A stretch of DNA of 64,000 bases from Escherichia coli (GCF_003018255.1 NZ_CP027440.1); one strand, 5' to 3'; numbered from the stretch's first letter, positions 56,225 to 64,000 are shown. Notes: generated from the letters alone by a model not told the origin. Program-made: numbers and translations.

Positions 56225-56686
<462 letters not shown>

Positions 56687-56707
56687 TTCGTTATTCAACG
56701 AGACGTA

Positions 56708-56740
56708 AAAACGCCGACCAGTGGTCGGCGTTTTGCTTTT
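56708..56740 (+). terminator. Rho-independent terminator of the rpsF-priB-rpsR-rplI operon
   Basis: Hairpin cgccgacca-gt-ggtcggcg (56712..56730) followed by ttttgctttt. Confidence 0.85.
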
Positions 56741-57048
56741 AAGTGATAAAAACCGCAGAAACAGACGTTCCCTCCATAAATCTCTTGCTATTCCTTTTAT
56801 AAAAAGTTCGCAGTACCCATACCTGGCCCCCAGCCTCGCCGCTGGTAGTTCGTGTCATGTTTTTTACGCGTAAAACACGACAAAAGCATCAATACAGCGA
56901 TCGTCTCACTTGTATGATAATAAAAACAATATGTTATATATGAATGTGCTGTTATTTTATTGTTTTTATATATAAAAAGATAAAATACCATCACTTTCGT
57001 AATCTTGAACGCTTTGCAGGTGCGTTCAATCCAATAAATGCTAATATT

Positions 57049-57065
57049 ATGGCTATCATAGCCAT
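57049..57065. promoter_or_regulatory. Candidate operator: 17-bp perfect palindrome upstream of the HTH gene
   Basis: atggctat-c-atagccat with 8-bp perfect arms, 23 bp before the HTH start codon; function inferred. Confidence 0.4.
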
Positions 57066-57087
57066 AAAAAGATAAAATATTATCACT

Positions 57088-57579
57088 ATGGGTAAAAAAA
57101 CAGCACCGTTACTCCCTTATACGAATCAGATGCTTAGTGAATTTGGTGAGCGGCTGAAACTTGCTCGTTTACGACGCAGGCTTACCGCAAAGCAAGTTGC
57201 TGAACGTGCTGGGATGTCGCCAATAACATTGCGCTCTCTGGAGTCAGGAAGTGCAGGGGTCACGATAGGGGCATATTTGTCTGTGATGCAGGTTTTGGGC
57301 CTGGAAACGGATTTAAATAAGCTTGCAGCTGAAGACGACTTAGGGCGTCAGCTCCAGGATTCCCGTTTGATTAAAAAAAGAGGGCTTTCTCGTGCATCAA
57401 GTAAGAATGAAGAAGGTTCTCAGACAGCCTCATTGCAGATGAGGCACGAGAAAGAAGGTCATCTCACCACGGATTTAACAGCACTGGCAGAAGGCTCGAC
57501 GCCATCTATTACAGGAGAAACATCAACCTCTCTTGCAGCACTATTAAAACCGATAAAAAAACCGTTAAAAGGAAATTAA
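57088..57579 (+). CDS. XRE-family helix-turn-helix protein with extended Ser/Thr-rich C-terminal tail; putative HipB-like antitoxin/repressor
   Basis: ORF track 163 aa; N-terminal region ([32 protein letters not shown]) has the XRE/Cro-type HTH pattern; stop lies 2 nt before the kinase start. Confidence 0.7.
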
Positions 57580-57581
57580 TT

Positions 57582-58850
57582 ATGGCATTAATCGGAGTGT
57601 ATGCGGATTGGGAAGGCCTGGATGGTCCGGAGCGGATTGGTTATTTACACAGTCGCCGCACTCGGACGCGTGAGATATTTGAGTTTGAGTACGATAAAAA
57701 GGCGCTTGCAGATCCTTCACTTAATTTCATTCAGTTAGATCCTGAAATAATGTTGTATGAGGGAGCACACTACCCAATTCCTCCAAAGGATAAATTTGGT
57801 GCATTTAGTGATTCCTGCCCGGATCGTTGGGGGCGTATGCTAATGAAGCGTCGTTTTGAGAGGGATATTCGAGACGGGTTATGTGATAAAGACTCCCACC
57901 TTTATGAGTCTGATTATCTACTAGGTGTTCATGATCTTTATCGGGTTGGGGCCCTTCGATACAAACGTGAAGACGCTGGAGAGTTTCTTGATAATCGCAT
58001 TGATGTTGCAGCCCCACCATTTACCGAAATAGCGAGTCTGGAAAGGGCTAGCCGGGCAATTGAAGAAGATCCTGATAATAAAGAGCTAATGGGGCAAAAA
58101 TGGTTAAGAATGCTAATCGCTCCGGGGGGATCATTAGGGGGGGCACGTCCGAAAGCCAGTGTTGTTGATGAAGCTGGGCATCTCTACATCGCTAAATTTC
58201 CCAGTGTAAAAGATGAGTATGATGTTGGTGGATGGGAAATGGCCGTTAATGCACTTGCTGTTGGCTGTGGACTGAATGTTGCACCTGCTCAGGCGCATAA
58301 ATTTGCCAGCAATTACCATTGTTTTATGGTTCGTCGTTTTGACCGCACTAATGCGGGAAGGCGTCTGCATTTTGCTTCGGCTATGACACTAACCAGGCAT
58401 CAGGATGGTGAAGATGCCTCTACAGGTGTGAGTTATCTGGAATTAGCAGATGTTCTTATCAGGCATGGCGCGCAGACTAATACTGATCTTAAGGAACTCT
58501 GGTCCAGGATTGTTTTTAATATTCTTGTTTCTAATACCGATGATCATTTACGCAATCATGGATTTATCTTGATACCAGGAAAAGGTTGGCGGCTTTCTGA
58601 GGCATATGATTTGAATCCTGTGGTCAGGTCTGATGGTTTAAAACTCAATATTACGGAAAATGACAATGCACTTGATTTGGAATTAGCTAGAGAAGTTGCA
58701 GAGTATTTTCGACTTAGTTTGACGGAAGCTGATGACATTATTGCTAATTTTAGAGGGATTGTCAGTCAGTGGCGAATCATTGCCGAGCGTCTGAGATTAC
58801 CTGGTCGTGAGCAAGAGTTAATGGCAGAGGCATTCAGAGCGTCAATTTAG
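57582..58850 (+). CDS. HipA-family serine/threonine kinase (putative toxin)
   Basis: ORF track 422 aa; HipA-like motifs GGARPK (res ~186-191), NTDDHLRNHG (res ~318-327), AYD (res ~341-343) and N-terminal SDSCPDRWGR resembling the HipA N-subdomain; RBS aaaagga. Confidence 0.75.
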   Translation: MALIGVYADWEGLDGPERIGYLHSRRTRTREIFEFEYDKKALADPSLNFIQLDPEIMLYEGAHYPIPPKDKFGAFSDSCPDRWGRMLMKRRFERDIRDGLCDKDSHLYESDYLLGVHDLYRVGALRYKREDAGEFLDNRIDVAAPPFTEIASLERASRAIEEDPDNKELMGQKWLRMLIAPGGSLGGARPKASVVDEAGHLYIAKFPSVKDEYDVGGWEMAVNALAVGCGLNVAPAQAHKFASNYHCFMVRRFDRTNAGRRLHFASAMTLTRHQDGEDASTGVSYLELADVLIRHGAQTNTDLKELWSRIVFNILVSNTDDHLRNHGFILIPGKGWRLSEAYDLNPVVRSDGLKLNITENDNALDLELAREVAEYFRLSLTEADDIIANFRGIVSQWRIIAERLRLPGREQELMAEAFRASI

Positions 58851-58948
58851 AATAGTTATTTCGATATATTCGCTAAATCATAAATTTGCGAAGCAATGCC
58901 AGTAGATACTGAACGTTTTGGAAGAGACGTTTAATTTATGAGAAAAAT

Positions 58949-58992: not shown

Positions 58993-60270
58993 TTAGCTTG
59001 TCGCTAACTGTACTTGTGGTTCTTCGTCTTTAACTTTGATAAGCATCCACAGCGCAATGGCGCCAATAATGTCAAAGAAAGCCAGGGCAATAAAGAACGG
59101 CGCGAAGCCAATAATGTGAACGAATGCCCCGATAAACAGGTTGAAAATCAACTGACCGCTCCATGCACAGGCTCCTGCCATACCCACAGCGGTAGCTACT
59201 TCGTCTTTTTTGAATAGGTCACCGCCCAGAGTTGCTGCAACAGTAGAAAGACATTGATGCGAGAATGCGCCAATGCTAATCAGTAATACGGCGATGTAGG
59301 GATTTTCGACAATACTCACCAGACCAATCGTCATCATAATGACGGCTGCAATAGTGAAGGTAATTCTTCGTGAGTTAATTAAACTCACGCCGCGATCGTG
59401 GAAGAACTTCGCGACAAAACCACTGGCTAAACAGCCGAGATCGCCCAGCAGGAAAGGTAGCCAGACGAACATGGCAATTTCTTTCAGGCTAAAATGCAGC
59501 GTTTCGACGAAGAAAATCGGTACCCAGAAGTTAATGGTTCCCCATGCCGGGTCAGCGAGAAAACGCGCGATGCCAATCCCCCAGAAATTACGTTGGCTGA
59601 GGATATGCTTGATTGACGTTTTTTCTTTCTTATCTGTTTTAAGATGCTGTTCTTGCCCAGACTCAATATAGTGGCGCTCTTCATCAGAAAGGCGTTTAGC
59701 ATCTTTTGGATCTTTATAACAAAAGAACCAAAATAAAGCCGCGAGTAAAGCAAGGCTACCTGAGACAATAAACGCAAATTGCCAGCTATGAAACATAATG
59801 CACCAGGCAATCAACGGTGGAGCAAGCATCGCGCCGAGTGAGGTGCCCATATTGAAAACACCTGTCGCCACGCCACGCTCTTTTGCCGGGAACCATGTTG
59901 ATGCGGTTTTTACACCCGCAGGAATTGCCGATGCTTCGCTGAAACCCATCAGGGCGCGCATAAATGCCAGACCTGACCATGTTCCTGTCAAGGCATGCCC
60001 CATTGTCGCCAGGCCCCAGATTGCGGCACATATCGCAAAACTTAACTTCAGACCCACGGTATCAATAAAGAAGCCCATTATCGGTTGCCCCAATGTATAG
60101 GCCAACTGGAATGCACTGACAATCCATGAATATTGTTCTTTGGTTATTCCGGTTGTCTCCATAATCGTTGGAGCCGCAATACCTAACGCCGTTCTGTCCA
60201 GATAATTGATTACAGTGATAAAGCATACGAGGGCAATCATATGCCATCGATAATTCTTTATTTTATTCAT
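58993..60270 (-). CDS. MFS transporter, probably anion:cation symporter (ACS) type
   Basis: ORF track 425 aa; about 12 predicted hydrophobic helices; N-terminal NYLDRT motif resembling ExuT/DgoT-type carriers. Confidence 0.75.
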   Translation of the reverse strand: MNKIKNYRWHMIALVCFITVINYLDRTALGIAAPTIMETTGITKEQYSWIVSAFQLAYTLGQPIMGFFIDTVGLKLSFAICAAIWGLATMGHALTGTWSGLAFMRALMGFSEASAIPAGVKTASTWFPAKERGVATGVFNMGTSLGAMLAPPLIAWCIMFHSWQFAFIVSGSLALLAALFWFFCYKDPKDAKRLSDEERHYIESGQEQHLKTDKKEKTSIKHILSQRNFWGIGIARFLADPAWGTINFWVPIFFVETLHFSLKEIAMFVWLPFLLGDLGCLASGFVAKFFHDRGVSLINSRRITFTIAAVIMMTIGLVSIVENPYIAVLLISIGAFSHQCLSTVAATLGGDLFKKDEVATAVGMAGACAWSGQLIFNLFIGAFVHIIGFAPFFIALAFFDIIGAIALWMLIKVKDEEPQVQLATS

Positions 60271-60362
60271 TTTTAAACCTTTTAATTATATTAATAAACC
60301 CTGGTTGTTGGTATTTCCATGTAATAGGCAATAAAAATCAGGTACAGAGGAAATATTGAAAA

Positions 60363-62435
60363 TTATTGTGTGTAAATGTCTCCCTTTAAAAAATCTGGCC
60401 AGTTTTTTTCAAAGTAAATACCGTTAATACACGGTTGCATACGTAAAGACTTTACTTCGGTAATAAAAGAACCTTGCGAATATTGAATTGTTAATTTGTG
60501 ATTTTTGTCTTCAGCGAGTTCAGAGCGAAAACGCCATTCTTCTTTTGCGCCGCGACGAGTTTGTGGTAGGCATTTGCCTTGTGGATCAATAACCATACGC
60601 GCCCCACGGCTACCACCACCAGCATCAATATAATGCGTTAATTGTGTTAATACCGCGGCAGAAGTCAGCGCCATATGCCGCCACATAAACAGCTCGGCAA
60701 CTTCACCCACATGTTTGATTGCCAATCCATGCCGTTGGACAAATTCGTTCAATAGCAGGGCATCACGAGTGGCACGTCGGACTTTATCGGCATGGCAAAT
60801 AAATCCCGCATAGTCAGACATTCGTGCCTGAATTTTTTCTCTCACAACCGACAACGGCATCCCGGTCCCGTTATCGTGCGCCTGAGTAATGATCTCTCTT
60901 ATAGAAGCCAGTGCCGGAGCTACCAGCTGTGCTATATCTCCATCAATATTACGTTTTTGCGTGCAACCAATAAAACGTGCCAGACGAACAGCAAAAACCT
61001 GCCCGGCATTCAATGCCGCACCACCAGGGCGAGTGACGCCGTGTGTGCCAGCAACTTCCCCCACGGCGAAACAGCCGGGCAGGGAGGTTTGTCCCCAGAT
61101 ATCCACTTCAATGCCGCCATTCATATGCTGATTATTCATGGCAAACTGCAAAGGCTGTGTGGTGAGATCGTAACCGTGCATCTTATACAGCGAGATAGAC
61201 AGCGGATTCATTCGTTGCAGCCGTTCGATGGGCGATGGTGCCAGAGCGTCGTTATTTTCCAGATACGCGCGAACGTCGTCGTCCAGTCGATCTAATGAGA
61301 AGGGCAGGTCACCCGGCACCGCTTCAGGATTGCGATTGAAATCCATAAATACCTGACGCCCTGATTGCTGCTCTTGCGCTACAGCCATATCTAACAAGCT
61401 GGAGCCAAACTCCATTACCCGAGTGGCGTGGAACGGCCACTGATAGCCTTTACGAAAAATGTTTGAAGCCAGCTCCTGGGTGGTGCGATAGTAATCCGCG
61501 AGGAAGTTATACTCGTTGCCCCCGGCATCCACGGAATAGATATGTGGGATCACCTGCACATAGGTGCCGGACAAATTCCACGGAAACGTGCTGCGCGGTG
61601 TGCCTATACCAAACTGGCTTTCAGTCAAATTGGTTAGCGTCAGACCTTCTTCCAGCGCCAGCCCCAGCGAGCCGAAACATTTGTGTGGGTACACACTGTC
61701 GCGATAAAGCTCGCCAGGCCCTCCTGTTGCCAGTACCACATTGGGCGCAATCACAATTGCCAGCCCCCATGGGTTATGGACGCGATGACCGGTCGCGAGG
61801 ATAGCCCCCGCCACGCGGTCTTCGCCGTTTTCGTCACGCTGATGCAGCAGTTTAATCACTGTTGCACTGGTCAACATTGGGATAGCAAGACGCTGTACTT
61901 CTTCCAGCAGCACTTTCACCATTAACCTTGAGGTACGTGGCCCACACGAGGTTGCACGCCCGGCTTCGTCATGGTCGGTTTGATAACGAAGAATCGCACC
62001 ATAGCGATCTTCCGGTAATTCCAGACCAAGATATTGCAACCCGCCAAGAGTGTGCAGAGAACCTACCGCTTCGACATAAGCAGTGTCGTGATCCATCGCC
62101 CCACCACTCGCCAGTGCCTCTGCCAGTTTGGTGAAGTTGTCGCCGTTGCCCGCGGTAGCGGCGGTAAACAGCGTCTGTTTATCGGAACCGGAGCAGGCCG
62201 ATGTTCCCATGTATAACCCGGCGGTGGCGATTAACACATTTTGCTGGCGGCGTTTAAGTTCCACAGCTGCACGCAGCCCGGCTGCACCACTGCCGACTAC
62301 CAGGGCATCTGTTTGCCAAAGTGGGTAATCAACACCGTCTACCGTGACAACCCATGCGGGTTCTGCCTGTGCAAAACCCTTTGGGAAAGTAACGTGCGTC
62401 AGCGCATCAAGGATGGTGTCATCAAGCTGACTCAT
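60363..62435 (-). CDS. FAD-dependent oxidoreductase, fumarate reductase/succinate dehydrogenase flavoprotein-like
   Basis: ORF track 690 aa; dinucleotide-binding VVGSGAAGLRAA and FrdA-like segment CFAVGEVAGTHGVTRPGGAALNAGQVF; ATG overlaps the upstream stop (ATGA). Confidence 0.7.
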   Translation of the reverse strand: MSQLDDTILDALTHVTFPKGFAQAEPAWVVTVDGVDYPLWQTDALVVGSGAAGLRAAVELKRRQQNVLIATAGLYMGTSACSGSDKQTLFTAATAGNGDNFTKLAEALASGGAMDHDTAYVEAVGSLHTLGGLQYLGLELPEDRYGAILRYQTDHDEAGRATSCGPRTSRLMVKVLLEEVQRLAIPMLTSATVIKLLHQRDENGEDRVAGAILATGHRVHNPWGLAIVIAPNVVLATGGPGELYRDSVYPHKCFGSLGLALEEGLTLTNLTESQFGIGTPRSTFPWNLSGTYVQVIPHIYSVDAGGNEYNFLADYYRTTQELASNIFRKGYQWPFHATRVMEFGSSLLDMAVAQEQQSGRQVFMDFNRNPEAVPGDLPFSLDRLDDDVRAYLENNDALAPSPIERLQRMNPLSISLYKMHGYDLTTQPLQFAMNNQHMNGGIEVDIWGQTSLPGCFAVGEVAGTHGVTRPGGAALNAGQVFAVRLARFIGCTQKRNIDGDIAQLVAPALASIREIITQAHDNGTGMPLSVVREKIQARMSDYAGFICHADKVRRATRDALLLNEFVQRHGLAIKHVGEVAELFMWRHMALTSAAVLTQLTHYIDAGGGSRGARMVIDPQGKCLPQTRRGAKEEWRFRSELAEDKNHKLTIQYSQGSFITEVKSLRMQPCINGIYFEKNWPDFLKGDIYTQ

Positions 62436-63973
62436 GCATCCTCCATCGGCGTAAACAGGCTACTTTCCATCAGGCGTGGGTGCTTGATAATTGGACGGAA
62501 AGCCATATACGGCAGAATGTCGCGCTCAATCTCCACACCCGGCGCGATTTCAATTAATTCAACGCCTTCTGCCGTTAACTGGAATACTGCGCGTTCAGTG
62601 ATATACAGCACTTCCTGACCACTTTGCTGTGCGTAGGCGGCGCTAAAAGTGATTTTTTCCACTTGGGTAACCAGTTTAGGGATTTGACCTGACTGGGCGA
62701 TATGCAGGCCATCAGGCGTTACATCAATCTTGCTGCCTTTGGCGTCAAACGTACCGCAGAACACCACTTTACGGGCGTTTTGCGCAATTTCGAGGAAGCC
62801 GCCGGGGCCAATGAGATTGCCATTGAGATGGGATACGTTGACGTTACCGTACCGATCCATCTCTCCCATGCCGAGGAAGGTGATATCGATACCGCCGCCA
62901 CTGTAGAATTCGAATTGATCGAGTGATGGAATAATGGCGTCGGCGTTACGGGCGCAGCCGAACAGAGCATCATCCAGCATCATGCCGTTATGTACGCCTT
63001 GCTCGACGCTCATCCATAAACTTTGATAAGGCACGCCTTCGCGCAGCGCAACCCCAGGAATACCGCCCGGAATACCAAAGCCAAAGTTGGTTGAAGCGCC
63101 TGCCACCAGTTCCCGTGCTGCCCGACGGGCAATCAGGCGACGCACCGGATGACTAACCAGTTCAATAGCGTCGTTAGAACTTAGACGGCGATGTTGACCG
63201 CTGATCGTCAGGTCGTAACCGCCAAGATAGGTTTGCGGTTGTTCGCGGTGTTCAACGATACCATCGACCAGAATCCCCGGTAGCTTGACCTTGCGAGGTT
63301 CAATGGCGCCAGCTTCCAGTACATCGCGCACCTGTACAAACACTTTGCCGCCACTGTTGTGTGCTGCCAGCGCCATCGAATAGCTATCCATATCAATCGC
63401 TTCTTCTTCGAGGCTAACGTTGCCACGCGGATCGGCATAGGTGCCGCGCAAAATCGCGTAGTCCACTTTGAAAGGGCGATAGCGGAGTTTGGTTTCACCG
63501 TCGATTTCAATCAGTTCTACCAGGTCGTCGGTCGTGCATTCATTCGACTTACCGCCACCATTGCGTGGATCAACAAACGATCCCAGCCCAACGTGGGTAA
63601 AAAGCCCCGGACGTCCGGCACCGATCTCCCGCAGCAGTGCCTGAATTACGCCACCAGGGAAACAGTAGGCTTCAATAGCATTGCTTTTCACCAGTTCCTG
63701 CATCTTGGGCGACCAGGTAAAATGTCCGGCAATAATGCGTTTGAGCATTTCGGCGTGAGCAAAACGGTTAGTGCCTTTGCTGTCGCGATCGCCAATACCC
63801 AGCGAGTGGATTAATGTCAGATCGCGCGGGTGTCCGGTTTGCAGGAAACGCGCTTCAATGGCGGCCATAATATGGTCAGCTTCCACCATACCGCCGCCGT
63901 TACCGCTAATGGCAATGGTTGCGCCGTCCTGAATTTGCGCCGCCAGTGTCTCGGCGGTTGATAACTTACGCAT
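62432..63973 (-). CDS. Fused two-domain acyl-CoA:acetate/3-ketoacid CoA-transferase (YdiF-like)
   Basis: ORF track 513 aa; strong resemblance to E. coli YdiF along its whole length by recall; RBS aggaaa; promoter lies beyond the window end. Confidence 0.75.
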   Translation of the reverse strand: MRKLSTAETLAAQIQDGATIAISGNGGGMVEADHIMAAIEARFLQTGHPRDLTLIHSLGIGDRDSKGTNRFAHAEMLKRIIAGHFTWSPKMQELVKSNAIEAYCFPGGVIQALLREIGAGRPGLFTHVGLGSFVDPRNGGGKSNECTTDDLVELIEIDGETKLRYRPFKVDYAILRGTYADPRGNVSLEEEAIDMDSYSMALAAHNSGGKVFVQVRDVLEAGAIEPRKVKLPGILVDGIVEHREQPQTYLGGYDLTISGQHRRLSSNDAIELVSHPVRRLIARRAARELVAGASTNFGFGIPGGIPGVALREGVPYQSLWMSVEQGVHNGMMLDDALFGCARNADAIIPSLDQFEFYSGGGIDITFLGMGEMDRYGNVNVSHLNGNLIGPGGFLEIAQNARKVVFCGTFDAKGSKIDVTPDGLHIAQSGQIPKLVTQVEKITFSAAYAQQSGQEVLYITERAVFQLTAEGVELIEIAPGVEIERDILPYMAFRPIIKHPRLMESSLFTPMEDA

Positions 63974-64000
63974 ACAATTTCCTTATTGATTGTGGAAGCT

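Follow-up and report, generated by a model that had tools for sequence, protein, structure and literature searches.

Four predicted operator sites in mirror-image pairs upstream of a hipBA-type toxin-antitoxin operon on a variable island of Escherichia coli

Introduction

The stretch between positions 56944 and 57088 of the Escherichia coli sequence analysed here (a window of 64,000 nt from GCF_003018255.1, NZ_CP027440.1) is very probably the operator and promoter of a hipBA-type operon, with four predicted sites for the HipB-like XRE protein encoded directly downstream. HipA kinases underlie the classic high-persister phenotype, and to our knowledge the layout of the operators is understood in no more than a few hip systems, namely those of K-12, Shewanella and Legionella HipBST. 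The hipBA subfamily to which the present locus belongs is highly conserved and very widespread and, as it seems, unstudied, being found in roughly one in five complete E. coli genomes (ST131 included), in Pseudomonas, Burkholderia and Bacteroidota, and often in mobile or defence-island settings. A four-site operator of the predicted kind would supply probes and mutants with which to study how expression in this subfamily depends on the toxin:antitoxin ratio, the main handles being the strict 31-bp pairing of the sites and the site that abuts the start codon. The pattern also offers a sequence signature for annotating such operons, and it corrects the tempting assumption that the most perfect palindrome in an intergenic region is the operator.

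Materials and methods

Starting from 14 aligned kinases, we took 80 related loci from one-genome-per-species contigs and added a small number of closer relatives by exact-protein look-up. Operator arms were located independently in each locus using an iteratively built 22-column matrix, and a second matrix was trained without any enterobacterial locus. To assess the chance occurrence of repeats and palindromes, the 353-bp intergenic region was shuffled 2000 times with its dinucleotide counts preserved.

Results and discussion

The operon and its genomic island

The HTH gene encodes a HipB-like antitoxin or repressor of 163 aa, whose XRE HTH domain spans residues 18-75 approximately (Pfam HTH_31, E = 6.6e-11) and whose C-terminal 65 aa or so are variable, while the gene that follows encodes a HipA-family Ser/Thr kinase of 422 aa, the toxin, with the Pfam domain HipA_C (PF07804) at residues 184-397 (E = 3.4e-47). 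The two genes are co-oriented and translationally coupled, with 2 nt between the HTH stop and the hipA start (Table 1), and PGAP names the pair 'helix-turn-helix domain-containing protein' and 'type II toxin-antitoxin system HipA family toxin'. PGAP also begins the HTH gene at 57088, and about 70 loci share the N-terminus M(A/G)KKTAPLLP from the first residue on; the start codon is thus fixed at this position, as the HTH homologues align from residue 1. Across the 14 aligned kinases, the glycine-rich loop GGSLGGARPKAS (residues 182-193) is invariant, and so are D320 D321 H322 L R N325 and A341 Y342 D343. We take the loop, DDHLRN and AYD to correspond to the K-12 motifs, including the catalytic DxHxxN and the Mg-binding D. 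Kinase homologues with 72-82% identity occur in the Gamma- and Betaproteobacteria, among them Enterobacter, Salmonella, Yersinia, Serratia, Pseudomonas, Stenotrophomonas and Burkholderia. By its sequence features, namely a kinase domain with intact motifs and a coupled XRE gene, the pair is a hipBA-type type II toxin-antitoxin module.

Table 1. Features of the analysed region by position in the window. For the predicted operator cores, the first bit score is that of the full matrix and the second that of the matrix trained without any enterobacterial locus.
Feature	Sequence	Position	Strand	Score or source
rplI intrinsic terminator		56708-56734	+	terminator scan
L2, predicted distal left core	TGCTGTTATTTTATTG	56947-56962 (22-mer 56944-56965)	+	18.6; 18.8 bits
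Direct repeat, first copy	ATAAAAAGATAAAATACCATCACT	56972-56995		sequence reading and repeat finder
R2, predicted distal right core	AGATAAAATACCATCA (plus strand)	56978-56993 (22-mer 56975-56996)	-	19.3; 18.0 bits
Stretch deleted in isolate 82.0312		56996-57087		
Inverted repeat between the units	TTGAACGC-N9-GCGTTCAA	57005-57029		
L1, predicted proximal left core	TGCTAATATTATGGCT	57039-57054 (22-mer 57036-57057)	+	22.6; 20.7 bits
Extended -10-like element in L1	TGCTAATAT	57039-57047		
Palindrome, full extent	TTATGGCTAT-C-ATAGCCATAA	57047-57067		
Palindrome, 17-bp part	ATGGCTATCATAGCCAT	57049-57065		
Direct repeat, second copy	ATAAAAAGATAAAATATTATCACT	57064-57087		sequence reading and repeat finder
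R1, predicted proximal right core	AGATAAAATATTATCA (plus strand)	57070-57085 (22-mer 57067-57088)	-	25.1; 23.2 bits
Promoter candidate in R1	TAAAAT	57073-57078		
HTH (hipB-like) gene		57088-57579	+	
Kinase (hipA) gene		57582-58850	+	
Remainder of the island		58993-64000	-	

Three tests for membership of named families failed: that for K-12-type HipB (NF007271 equivalog; 17.1 bits vs a cutoff of 79), that for Y4mF/couple_hipB (TIGR03070; 30.3 bits vs 71.65) and that for the YjjJ/HipH kinase (NF007297; 44.5 bits vs 401), the HTH being here a separate upstream gene. The nearest solved kinases are HipT proteins, and K-12 HipA structures were not retrieved at E <= 1e-3. When the kinase was sought in a published Hip tree, the E. 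coli accessions were absent from the supplementary text (PMC8262856).

The intergenic region, from the rplI terminator to the HTH start codon, has a G+C content of only 26-35%. A variable island starts directly after the terminator, at a position occupied by yjfZ in K-12-type strains, and the operator region therefore lies inside the island. Genomes without the locus have only the first 50 nt or so of the query 56690-58900 in common with it, the island is carried by about 1040 of 5426 complete E. coli genomes, and the locus is 100% identical in strain JNE23-011. Further genes of the island, downstream of hipBA, specify an MFS transporter, a 690-aa FAD-dependent oxidoreductase, a CoA transferase, an enoyl-CoA hydratase and a sugar-phosphate isomerase, and is a metabolic cassette that accompanies the toxin-antitoxin module in E. 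coli.

Neighbourhoods differ elsewhere. The Enterobacter hipBA with the 82% identical kinase lies directly downstream of a gene for a class Ib aminoacyl-tRNA synthetase of 334 aa, the size of TrpS, and also adjoins SymE and McrA-like/HNH genes. HipT kinases target TrpS, and the adjacent synthetase may be either a coincidence or a hint of the target. Further copies of the subfamily (loci L089, L092 and L093) adjoin AcaB/DUF3158, or KwaA (Kiwa) together with TraI_2; AcaB and DUF3158 are typical of IncC/SGI1-type elements, and such neighbours indicate that the hipBA module travels with mobile and defence islands. Plasmid carriage of the subfamily is rare (9 records).

Four predicted operator sites

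When both strands of the 64-kb window were scanned, the four best matches to the matrix were R1, L1, R2 and L2, in this order, and the next best reached 12.5 bits; the matrix without Enterobacterales placed the same four sites first, followed by a match of 13.2 bits. As the matrix is built from the same locus family that it describes, the independent checks are this control and the sites R2 and L2, which were never in the training set. Centre spacings are 31 bp from L2 to R2, 61 bp from R2 to L1 and 31 bp from L1 to R1. R2 is inverted relative to L2, and R1 ends 2 nt before the ATG. L2 is degenerate, with G for A at matrix position 8 and T for C at position 18, and it is polymorphic in E. coli.

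An earlier note on this DNA had described a 24-nt direct repeat, which is indeed present (22 of 24 positions identical), its copies lying 92 bp apart from start to start and the second ending, as reported, at the base that precedes the ATG. No shuffled version of the intergenic region contained a 24-mer direct repeat of at least 22/24 (0/2000; maximum 20), which places the repeat far beyond chance. R2 lies inside the first copy and R1 inside the second, and each copy has an inverted partner 31 bp upstream that the earlier note had overlooked; the repeat finder had reported these partner arms among its inverted repeats (I1, I2 and I22). As read from the sequence comparison, the 24-bp repeat is R2 and R1 with their A-rich inner flanks, and the suggestion that it might provide a second binding site is borne out to the extent that R2 is a predicted member of the conserved site set. 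The R2 allele of the window (ACC) is a minority allele in E. coli; most strains carry ATC, with which the direct repeat becomes 23/24.

A fifth operator inside the ORF was considered at 57088-57107 (minus strand of ATGGCTAAAAAAACAGCACC; first codons ATGGGTAAAAAAACAGCACC) and rejected, as it reaches only about 7.6 bits in the window. In Enterobacterales this minus-strand candidate reaches no more than 6-15 bits, and in most loci its score is negative; it is 93% complementary to L2, and the conserved MxKKTAP codons probably account for its likeness to an arm. Between the two operator units, a G+C-richer stretch contains a perfect 8-bp inverted repeat (Table 1). A search of 56650-57150 found no RNA family near its gathering score.

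Conservation of the layout across loci

The HTH gene precedes the kinase gene in about 75 loci ranging from Enterobacterales to Bacteroidota, and these have a common upstream layout, with an AT-cored site right before the ATG, a mirror copy about 30 bp upstream and often a second pair. When the 16 nt at -19 to -4 were compared with their surroundings, the best inverted match lay between -44 and -52 in 64 of the 76 loci, with about 12 expected. Among the proteobacterial loci, the centre-to-centre distance between L1 and R1 is exactly 31 bp in 43 of 47, and the outer end of R1 falls within +/-1 nt of one position relative to the ATG in 42 of 47. The site is a pseudo-dyad of about 16 bp, TGCnA-N6-TnGCA, with a conserved asymmetric TATT centre, and the proximal right one lies 2-3 nt before the ATG; enterobacterial right arms read GATA...TATC. 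The matrix consensus, aAgTGcTAtTATTcTgGCatTT, is self-complementary about its centre (r = 0.6), and the L1, R1, L2 and R2 classes, analysed separately, yield one core, TG..A.TATT.Y..C. Bacteroidota-type loci have two 16-bp palindromes (GTnnAnnATnnTnnAC) at the same place, 31-32 bp apart. Specificity is high: the 400-bp upstream regions held about 150 matrix matches of at least 12 bits, and 261 kb of sequence elsewhere in the loci held 6.

Of the 39 proteobacterial loci whose proximal pair is clear, 24 also have a distal pair with the 31-bp offset, about 15 being without a detectable one. Helical phasing between the two units was considered and rejected: the distal-proximal gap ranges from 33 to 125 bp across loci and shows no phase, which counts against a single rigid four-site complex. 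Within a locus, L1 and R1 agree at 11.3 of 16 positions, compared with 10.2 between loci (permutation p < 1e-4, phylogeny being not fully controlled), and the excess sits at the variable positions; sites that track their own repressor should show such likeness.

In locus L093, the HTH gene was called (968-1489) from an ATG within L1, as a protein of 173 aa, and the conserved start lies 39 nt downstream of the called one. The ATG-containing sequence of the operator (TAATATTATGGC) can thus mislead annotation.

Proposed mechanism and comparison with characterised hip systems

Taken as a repressor-binding region, the layout would most likely serve autorepression of the hipB-hipA operon by HipB, possibly in complex with HipA. 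The 5-N6-5 geometry of the pseudo-dyad fits one HTH dimer per site, and by analogy with the characterised hip systems each 16-bp site would be occupied by one HipB dimer. As 31 bp corresponds to three helical turns, both sites of a unit face the same side of the DNA, and the invariant 31-bp mirror pairing suggests that the two dimers are held by one symmetric assembly on one DNA face. HipA bridging or HipB-HipB contacts would probably set this distance; in the K-12 hip system, HipA bridges HipB dimers. HipB dimers on L1 and R1 would cover all plausible core-promoter elements and the transcription start site (TSS), and would thereby repress the operon. Since the candidate promoters and start sites lie under L1 and/or R1 in every scenario, repression by occlusion would follow regardless of which one is used. 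The distal unit L2/R2 would add occupancy or cooperativity, or might hold a second, weaker promoter. If HipB were lost, the operon would be de-repressed.

For relatives it is established that HipB regulates its own operon through several operators, namely in K-12, Shewanella oneidensis (PMC4150777) and Legionella HipBST (PMC10653801). The hipBA operon of E. coli K-12 has four HipB operators, TATCCN8GGATA, separated by gaps of 10, 21 and 10 bp (summarised in PMC4150777). The present locus resembles it in the order of hipB (XRE HTH) and hipA (HipA_C kinase), in the grouping of four upstream dyads as 2+2, with within-pair centres 28 bp apart in K-12 and 31 bp apart here, and in the expected logic of autorepression by the antitoxin-toxin complex. 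Unlike in K-12, the half-sites are separated by N6 rather than N8, the sites are asymmetric and mirror-imaged within each pair, the last one abuts the ATG, and HipB has 163 rather than 88 aa. The kinase is very distant from K-12 HipA, with sub-threshold NCBIfam matches only, and a search of 56700-57100 for the K-12 operator found no match with up to 2 mismatches.

The hipBA operon of S. oneidensis has four GTGTAN6TACAC operators with even 34-bp gaps, the fourth lying inside the hipB ORF (PMC4150777). Here, likewise, there are four sites of 5-N6-5 geometry (16 bp), and the promoter-proximal one reaches the hipB start. The half-sites differ (TGCnA/GATA here, GTGTA in Shewanella), the N6 centre is conserved here (TATT), the spacing is that of inverted pairs 31 bp apart rather than even, and the ORF holds no convincing site; the Shewanella operator, with up to 2 mismatches, had no match near 56900-57100.

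In Legionella pneumophila, hipBST has three 18-nt HipB operators with 53-bp gaps, of which O1 lies 24 nt upstream of the start codon; these operators have a conserved centre, and O2 and O3 are asymmetric (PMC10653801). A conserved operator centre, tolerated asymmetry and distal sites more variable than the proximal ones are shared with the present locus, the kinase of which is closer by sequence to HipT than to K-12 HipA. In contrast to this locus, Legionella has three genes (hipBST), with HipS as antitoxin, and its three sites are evenly spaced with 6-nt half-sites, rather than arranged as two inverted pairs.

Two further proteins are pertinent. The entry PDB 9u9g ('XRE family transcriptional regulator, HipB'; 153 aa, 4 chains), which residues 1-99 of the HTH protein match at E = 1e-30, belongs to the same HipB subfamily and shares its MxKKTAPL(L/M)P N-terminus; it is the one close solved relative, and neither DNA nor a publication was found for it in the searchable literature. 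HipBA of Acidovorax citrulli, the subject of the only experimental study found that may concern a related system, is possibly related; its HipB shifts the whole promoter fragment in EMSA, with no operator defined. No description of the present operator design was found in the searchable literature and, as predicted from sequence, it departs from the known multi-operator hipBA promoters in four respects: the motif, the asymmetric conserved centre, the rigid 31-bp inverted pairs and the site abutting the start codon.

Promoter candidates within the predicted operator

A consensus scan of the plus strand for a standard sigma-70 -35/-10 promoter found none, and no -35 element is conserved upstream of L1. 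L1 itself reads TGnTAATAT, an extended -10-like element that makes a good promoter candidate and predicts a TSS near 57054. R1 carries two further candidates, TAAAAT (Table 1) and AATATT, which occupies -12 to -7 relative to the first base of the ATG, and GATAAAAT is a possible -10 for the proximal repeat copy.

The resemblance of the conserved core TGnTAnTAT to an extended -10 means that part of the L-arm conservation could reflect a promoter. A stronger version of this idea, in which the conserved arms are mainly promoter elements and the repeats are tandem or convergent promoters instead of operators, is in our judgement very improbable. It draws on the coincidence of the highest-information positions (TG, A, TAT) with those of an extended -10, on the fit of TG-n-nAnnnT to 31 of 39 L1 arms and 18 of 24 L2 arms, on the extra T at the -12 position in L1, and on the lack of a conserved -35 upstream of L1, just as extended -10 promoters would have it. 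Promoters of this type would not account for a motif that is equally conserved in reverse, in the R arms, at a rigid 31 bp, nor for its dyad symmetry, for the conserved T15, C18 and inner TT flank, which fall outside any -10, or for the covariation of the arms within loci. Bacteroidota-type loci, moreover, keep their two palindromic sites though a TAnnTTTG box, which we take to be the Bacteroidetes -7 promoter motif, lies between them, overlapping the inner edge of R1.

Most loci inspected have no Shine-Dalgarno sequence before the ATG, and ATG is the start codon in nearly all of the 75 or so; together with the fixed distance between R1 and the ATG, this fits a leaderless or near-leaderless mRNA. 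A joint reading can be built on it, which we consider unlikely though worth setting out: the hipB mRNA would be leaderless or nearly so, with its -10 in the AATAnT core of R1, the paired arms would act as a ruler for an assembly, and the palindrome would be a new layer. A single site of 16 bp could then combine three roles, binding the repressor, providing the -10 element and defining where translation starts; the 31-bp L-R ruler would reflect a HipB tetramer or a HipA-bridged assembly from Proteobacteria to Bacteroidota; and the E. coli palindrome would be an extra layer, such as a host-factor site or a read-through RNA hairpin. A search for leaderless hipB found nothing relevant in the searchable literature.

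The palindrome between L1 and R1

The reading preferred here, of four HipB sites in two mirror-image pairs, assigns no operator role to the most conspicuous symmetric element of the region. The 17-bp perfect palindrome described in the earlier note is present and in fact longer than reported, with arms of 10 bp (Table 1). Of the 2000 shuffled intergenic regions, 12 (0.6%) contained a perfect palindrome with arms of 10 bp or more, and 92 contained one with arms of 8 bp or more, 8 bp being the arm length of the 17-bp form; the palindrome is thus unlikely by chance yet less extreme than the direct repeat, given the low G+C content of the region. Its left arm coincides with the inner end of L1, and its right arm (57058-57067) fills the spacer between L1 and R1.

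The earlier note suggests a model in which this palindrome would be the operator, bound by the HTH dimer, with the direct repeats as accessory -10-like elements. Compact palindromes are typical XRE operators, the element is real and lies where an operator would be expected, about 30 bp before the ATG, and it is included in the 66-nt proximal unit (57030-57095) that is identical in 1023 of 1045 E. coli carriers (98%). The comparison across loci nevertheless makes the proposal very improbable. None of the 46 other proteobacterial loci has the palindrome; in those from Salmonella, Enterobacter, Serratia and Erwinia, near-identical arms enclose a spacer of the same length (17 nt, TTATGGC to GATAAAAT) and of differing sequence. 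A search of the last 60 bp of the other proteobacterial loci for compact perfect palindromes with arms of at least 6 bp returned only two short AT-only ones. In the L1-anchored profile, the spacer centre, into which the right half of the palindrome falls, carries almost no information, its length alone being conserved. The HTH domain is highly conserved across loci, so a lineage-specific operator is not expected, and in isolate 82.0312 the palindrome is deleted from in front of an HTH gene that is annotated as intact.

The conserved elements are instead the four pseudo-dyads of about 16 bp. What stands of the original proposal is that this is the regulatory region of an HTH-plus-toxin operon, in keeping with the succession of XRE HTH and HipA_C kinase genes; the 17-bp palindrome as its operator does not. 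On the available alignments, the palindrome is a feature specific to the E. coli lineage, situated in a free spacer and outside the conserved operator design, and its near-invariance within the species may simply reflect recent common ancestry, the sole account that we offer. As RNA, it could form a hairpin of 9-10 bp (-12.5 kcal/mol for 57030-57100, z = -2.6), which would be relevant only to transcripts initiated upstream of the palindrome.

Variation within E. coli

The distal unit (56938-57003) is identical to that of the window in just 87 of 1040 genomes. Its contribution is uncertain, as it is degenerate and polymorphic in E. coli and the distal pair is lacking in about 15 of 39 loci.

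The urinary isolate 82.0312 (NZ_CP122451.1) has a precise 92-bp deletion between the two repeat copies, by which L1 is lost along with the palindrome, while L2 and one R arm remain, the latter abutting the ATG. This is a natural repeat-mediated deletion, and the repeats are recombinogenic. That property, together with the position of the locus on a variable island starting right after the rplI terminator, would suit an origin of the direct repeat as a recent local duplication or mobile-element scar (an att site, or a target-site duplication, at the edge of the island) that plays no part in regulation, a possibility that is hardly credible and largely refuted by cross-genus conservation: the repeats lie some 230-350 bp inside the island boundary, the two-pair layout recurs in unrelated genomic contexts, in many genera and in diverged sequences, and both copies are matched by inverted partners of their own at 31 bp.

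Variation also affects the toxin gene. In E. coli SCU-171 and the ST131 strain 4224, hipA is annotated as frameshifted, with the HTH gene and the proximal operator intact, and other truncated hipA products measure 371-389 aa. Toxin genes are often inactivated, and these frameshifts and truncations suggest recurrent inactivation of the toxin.
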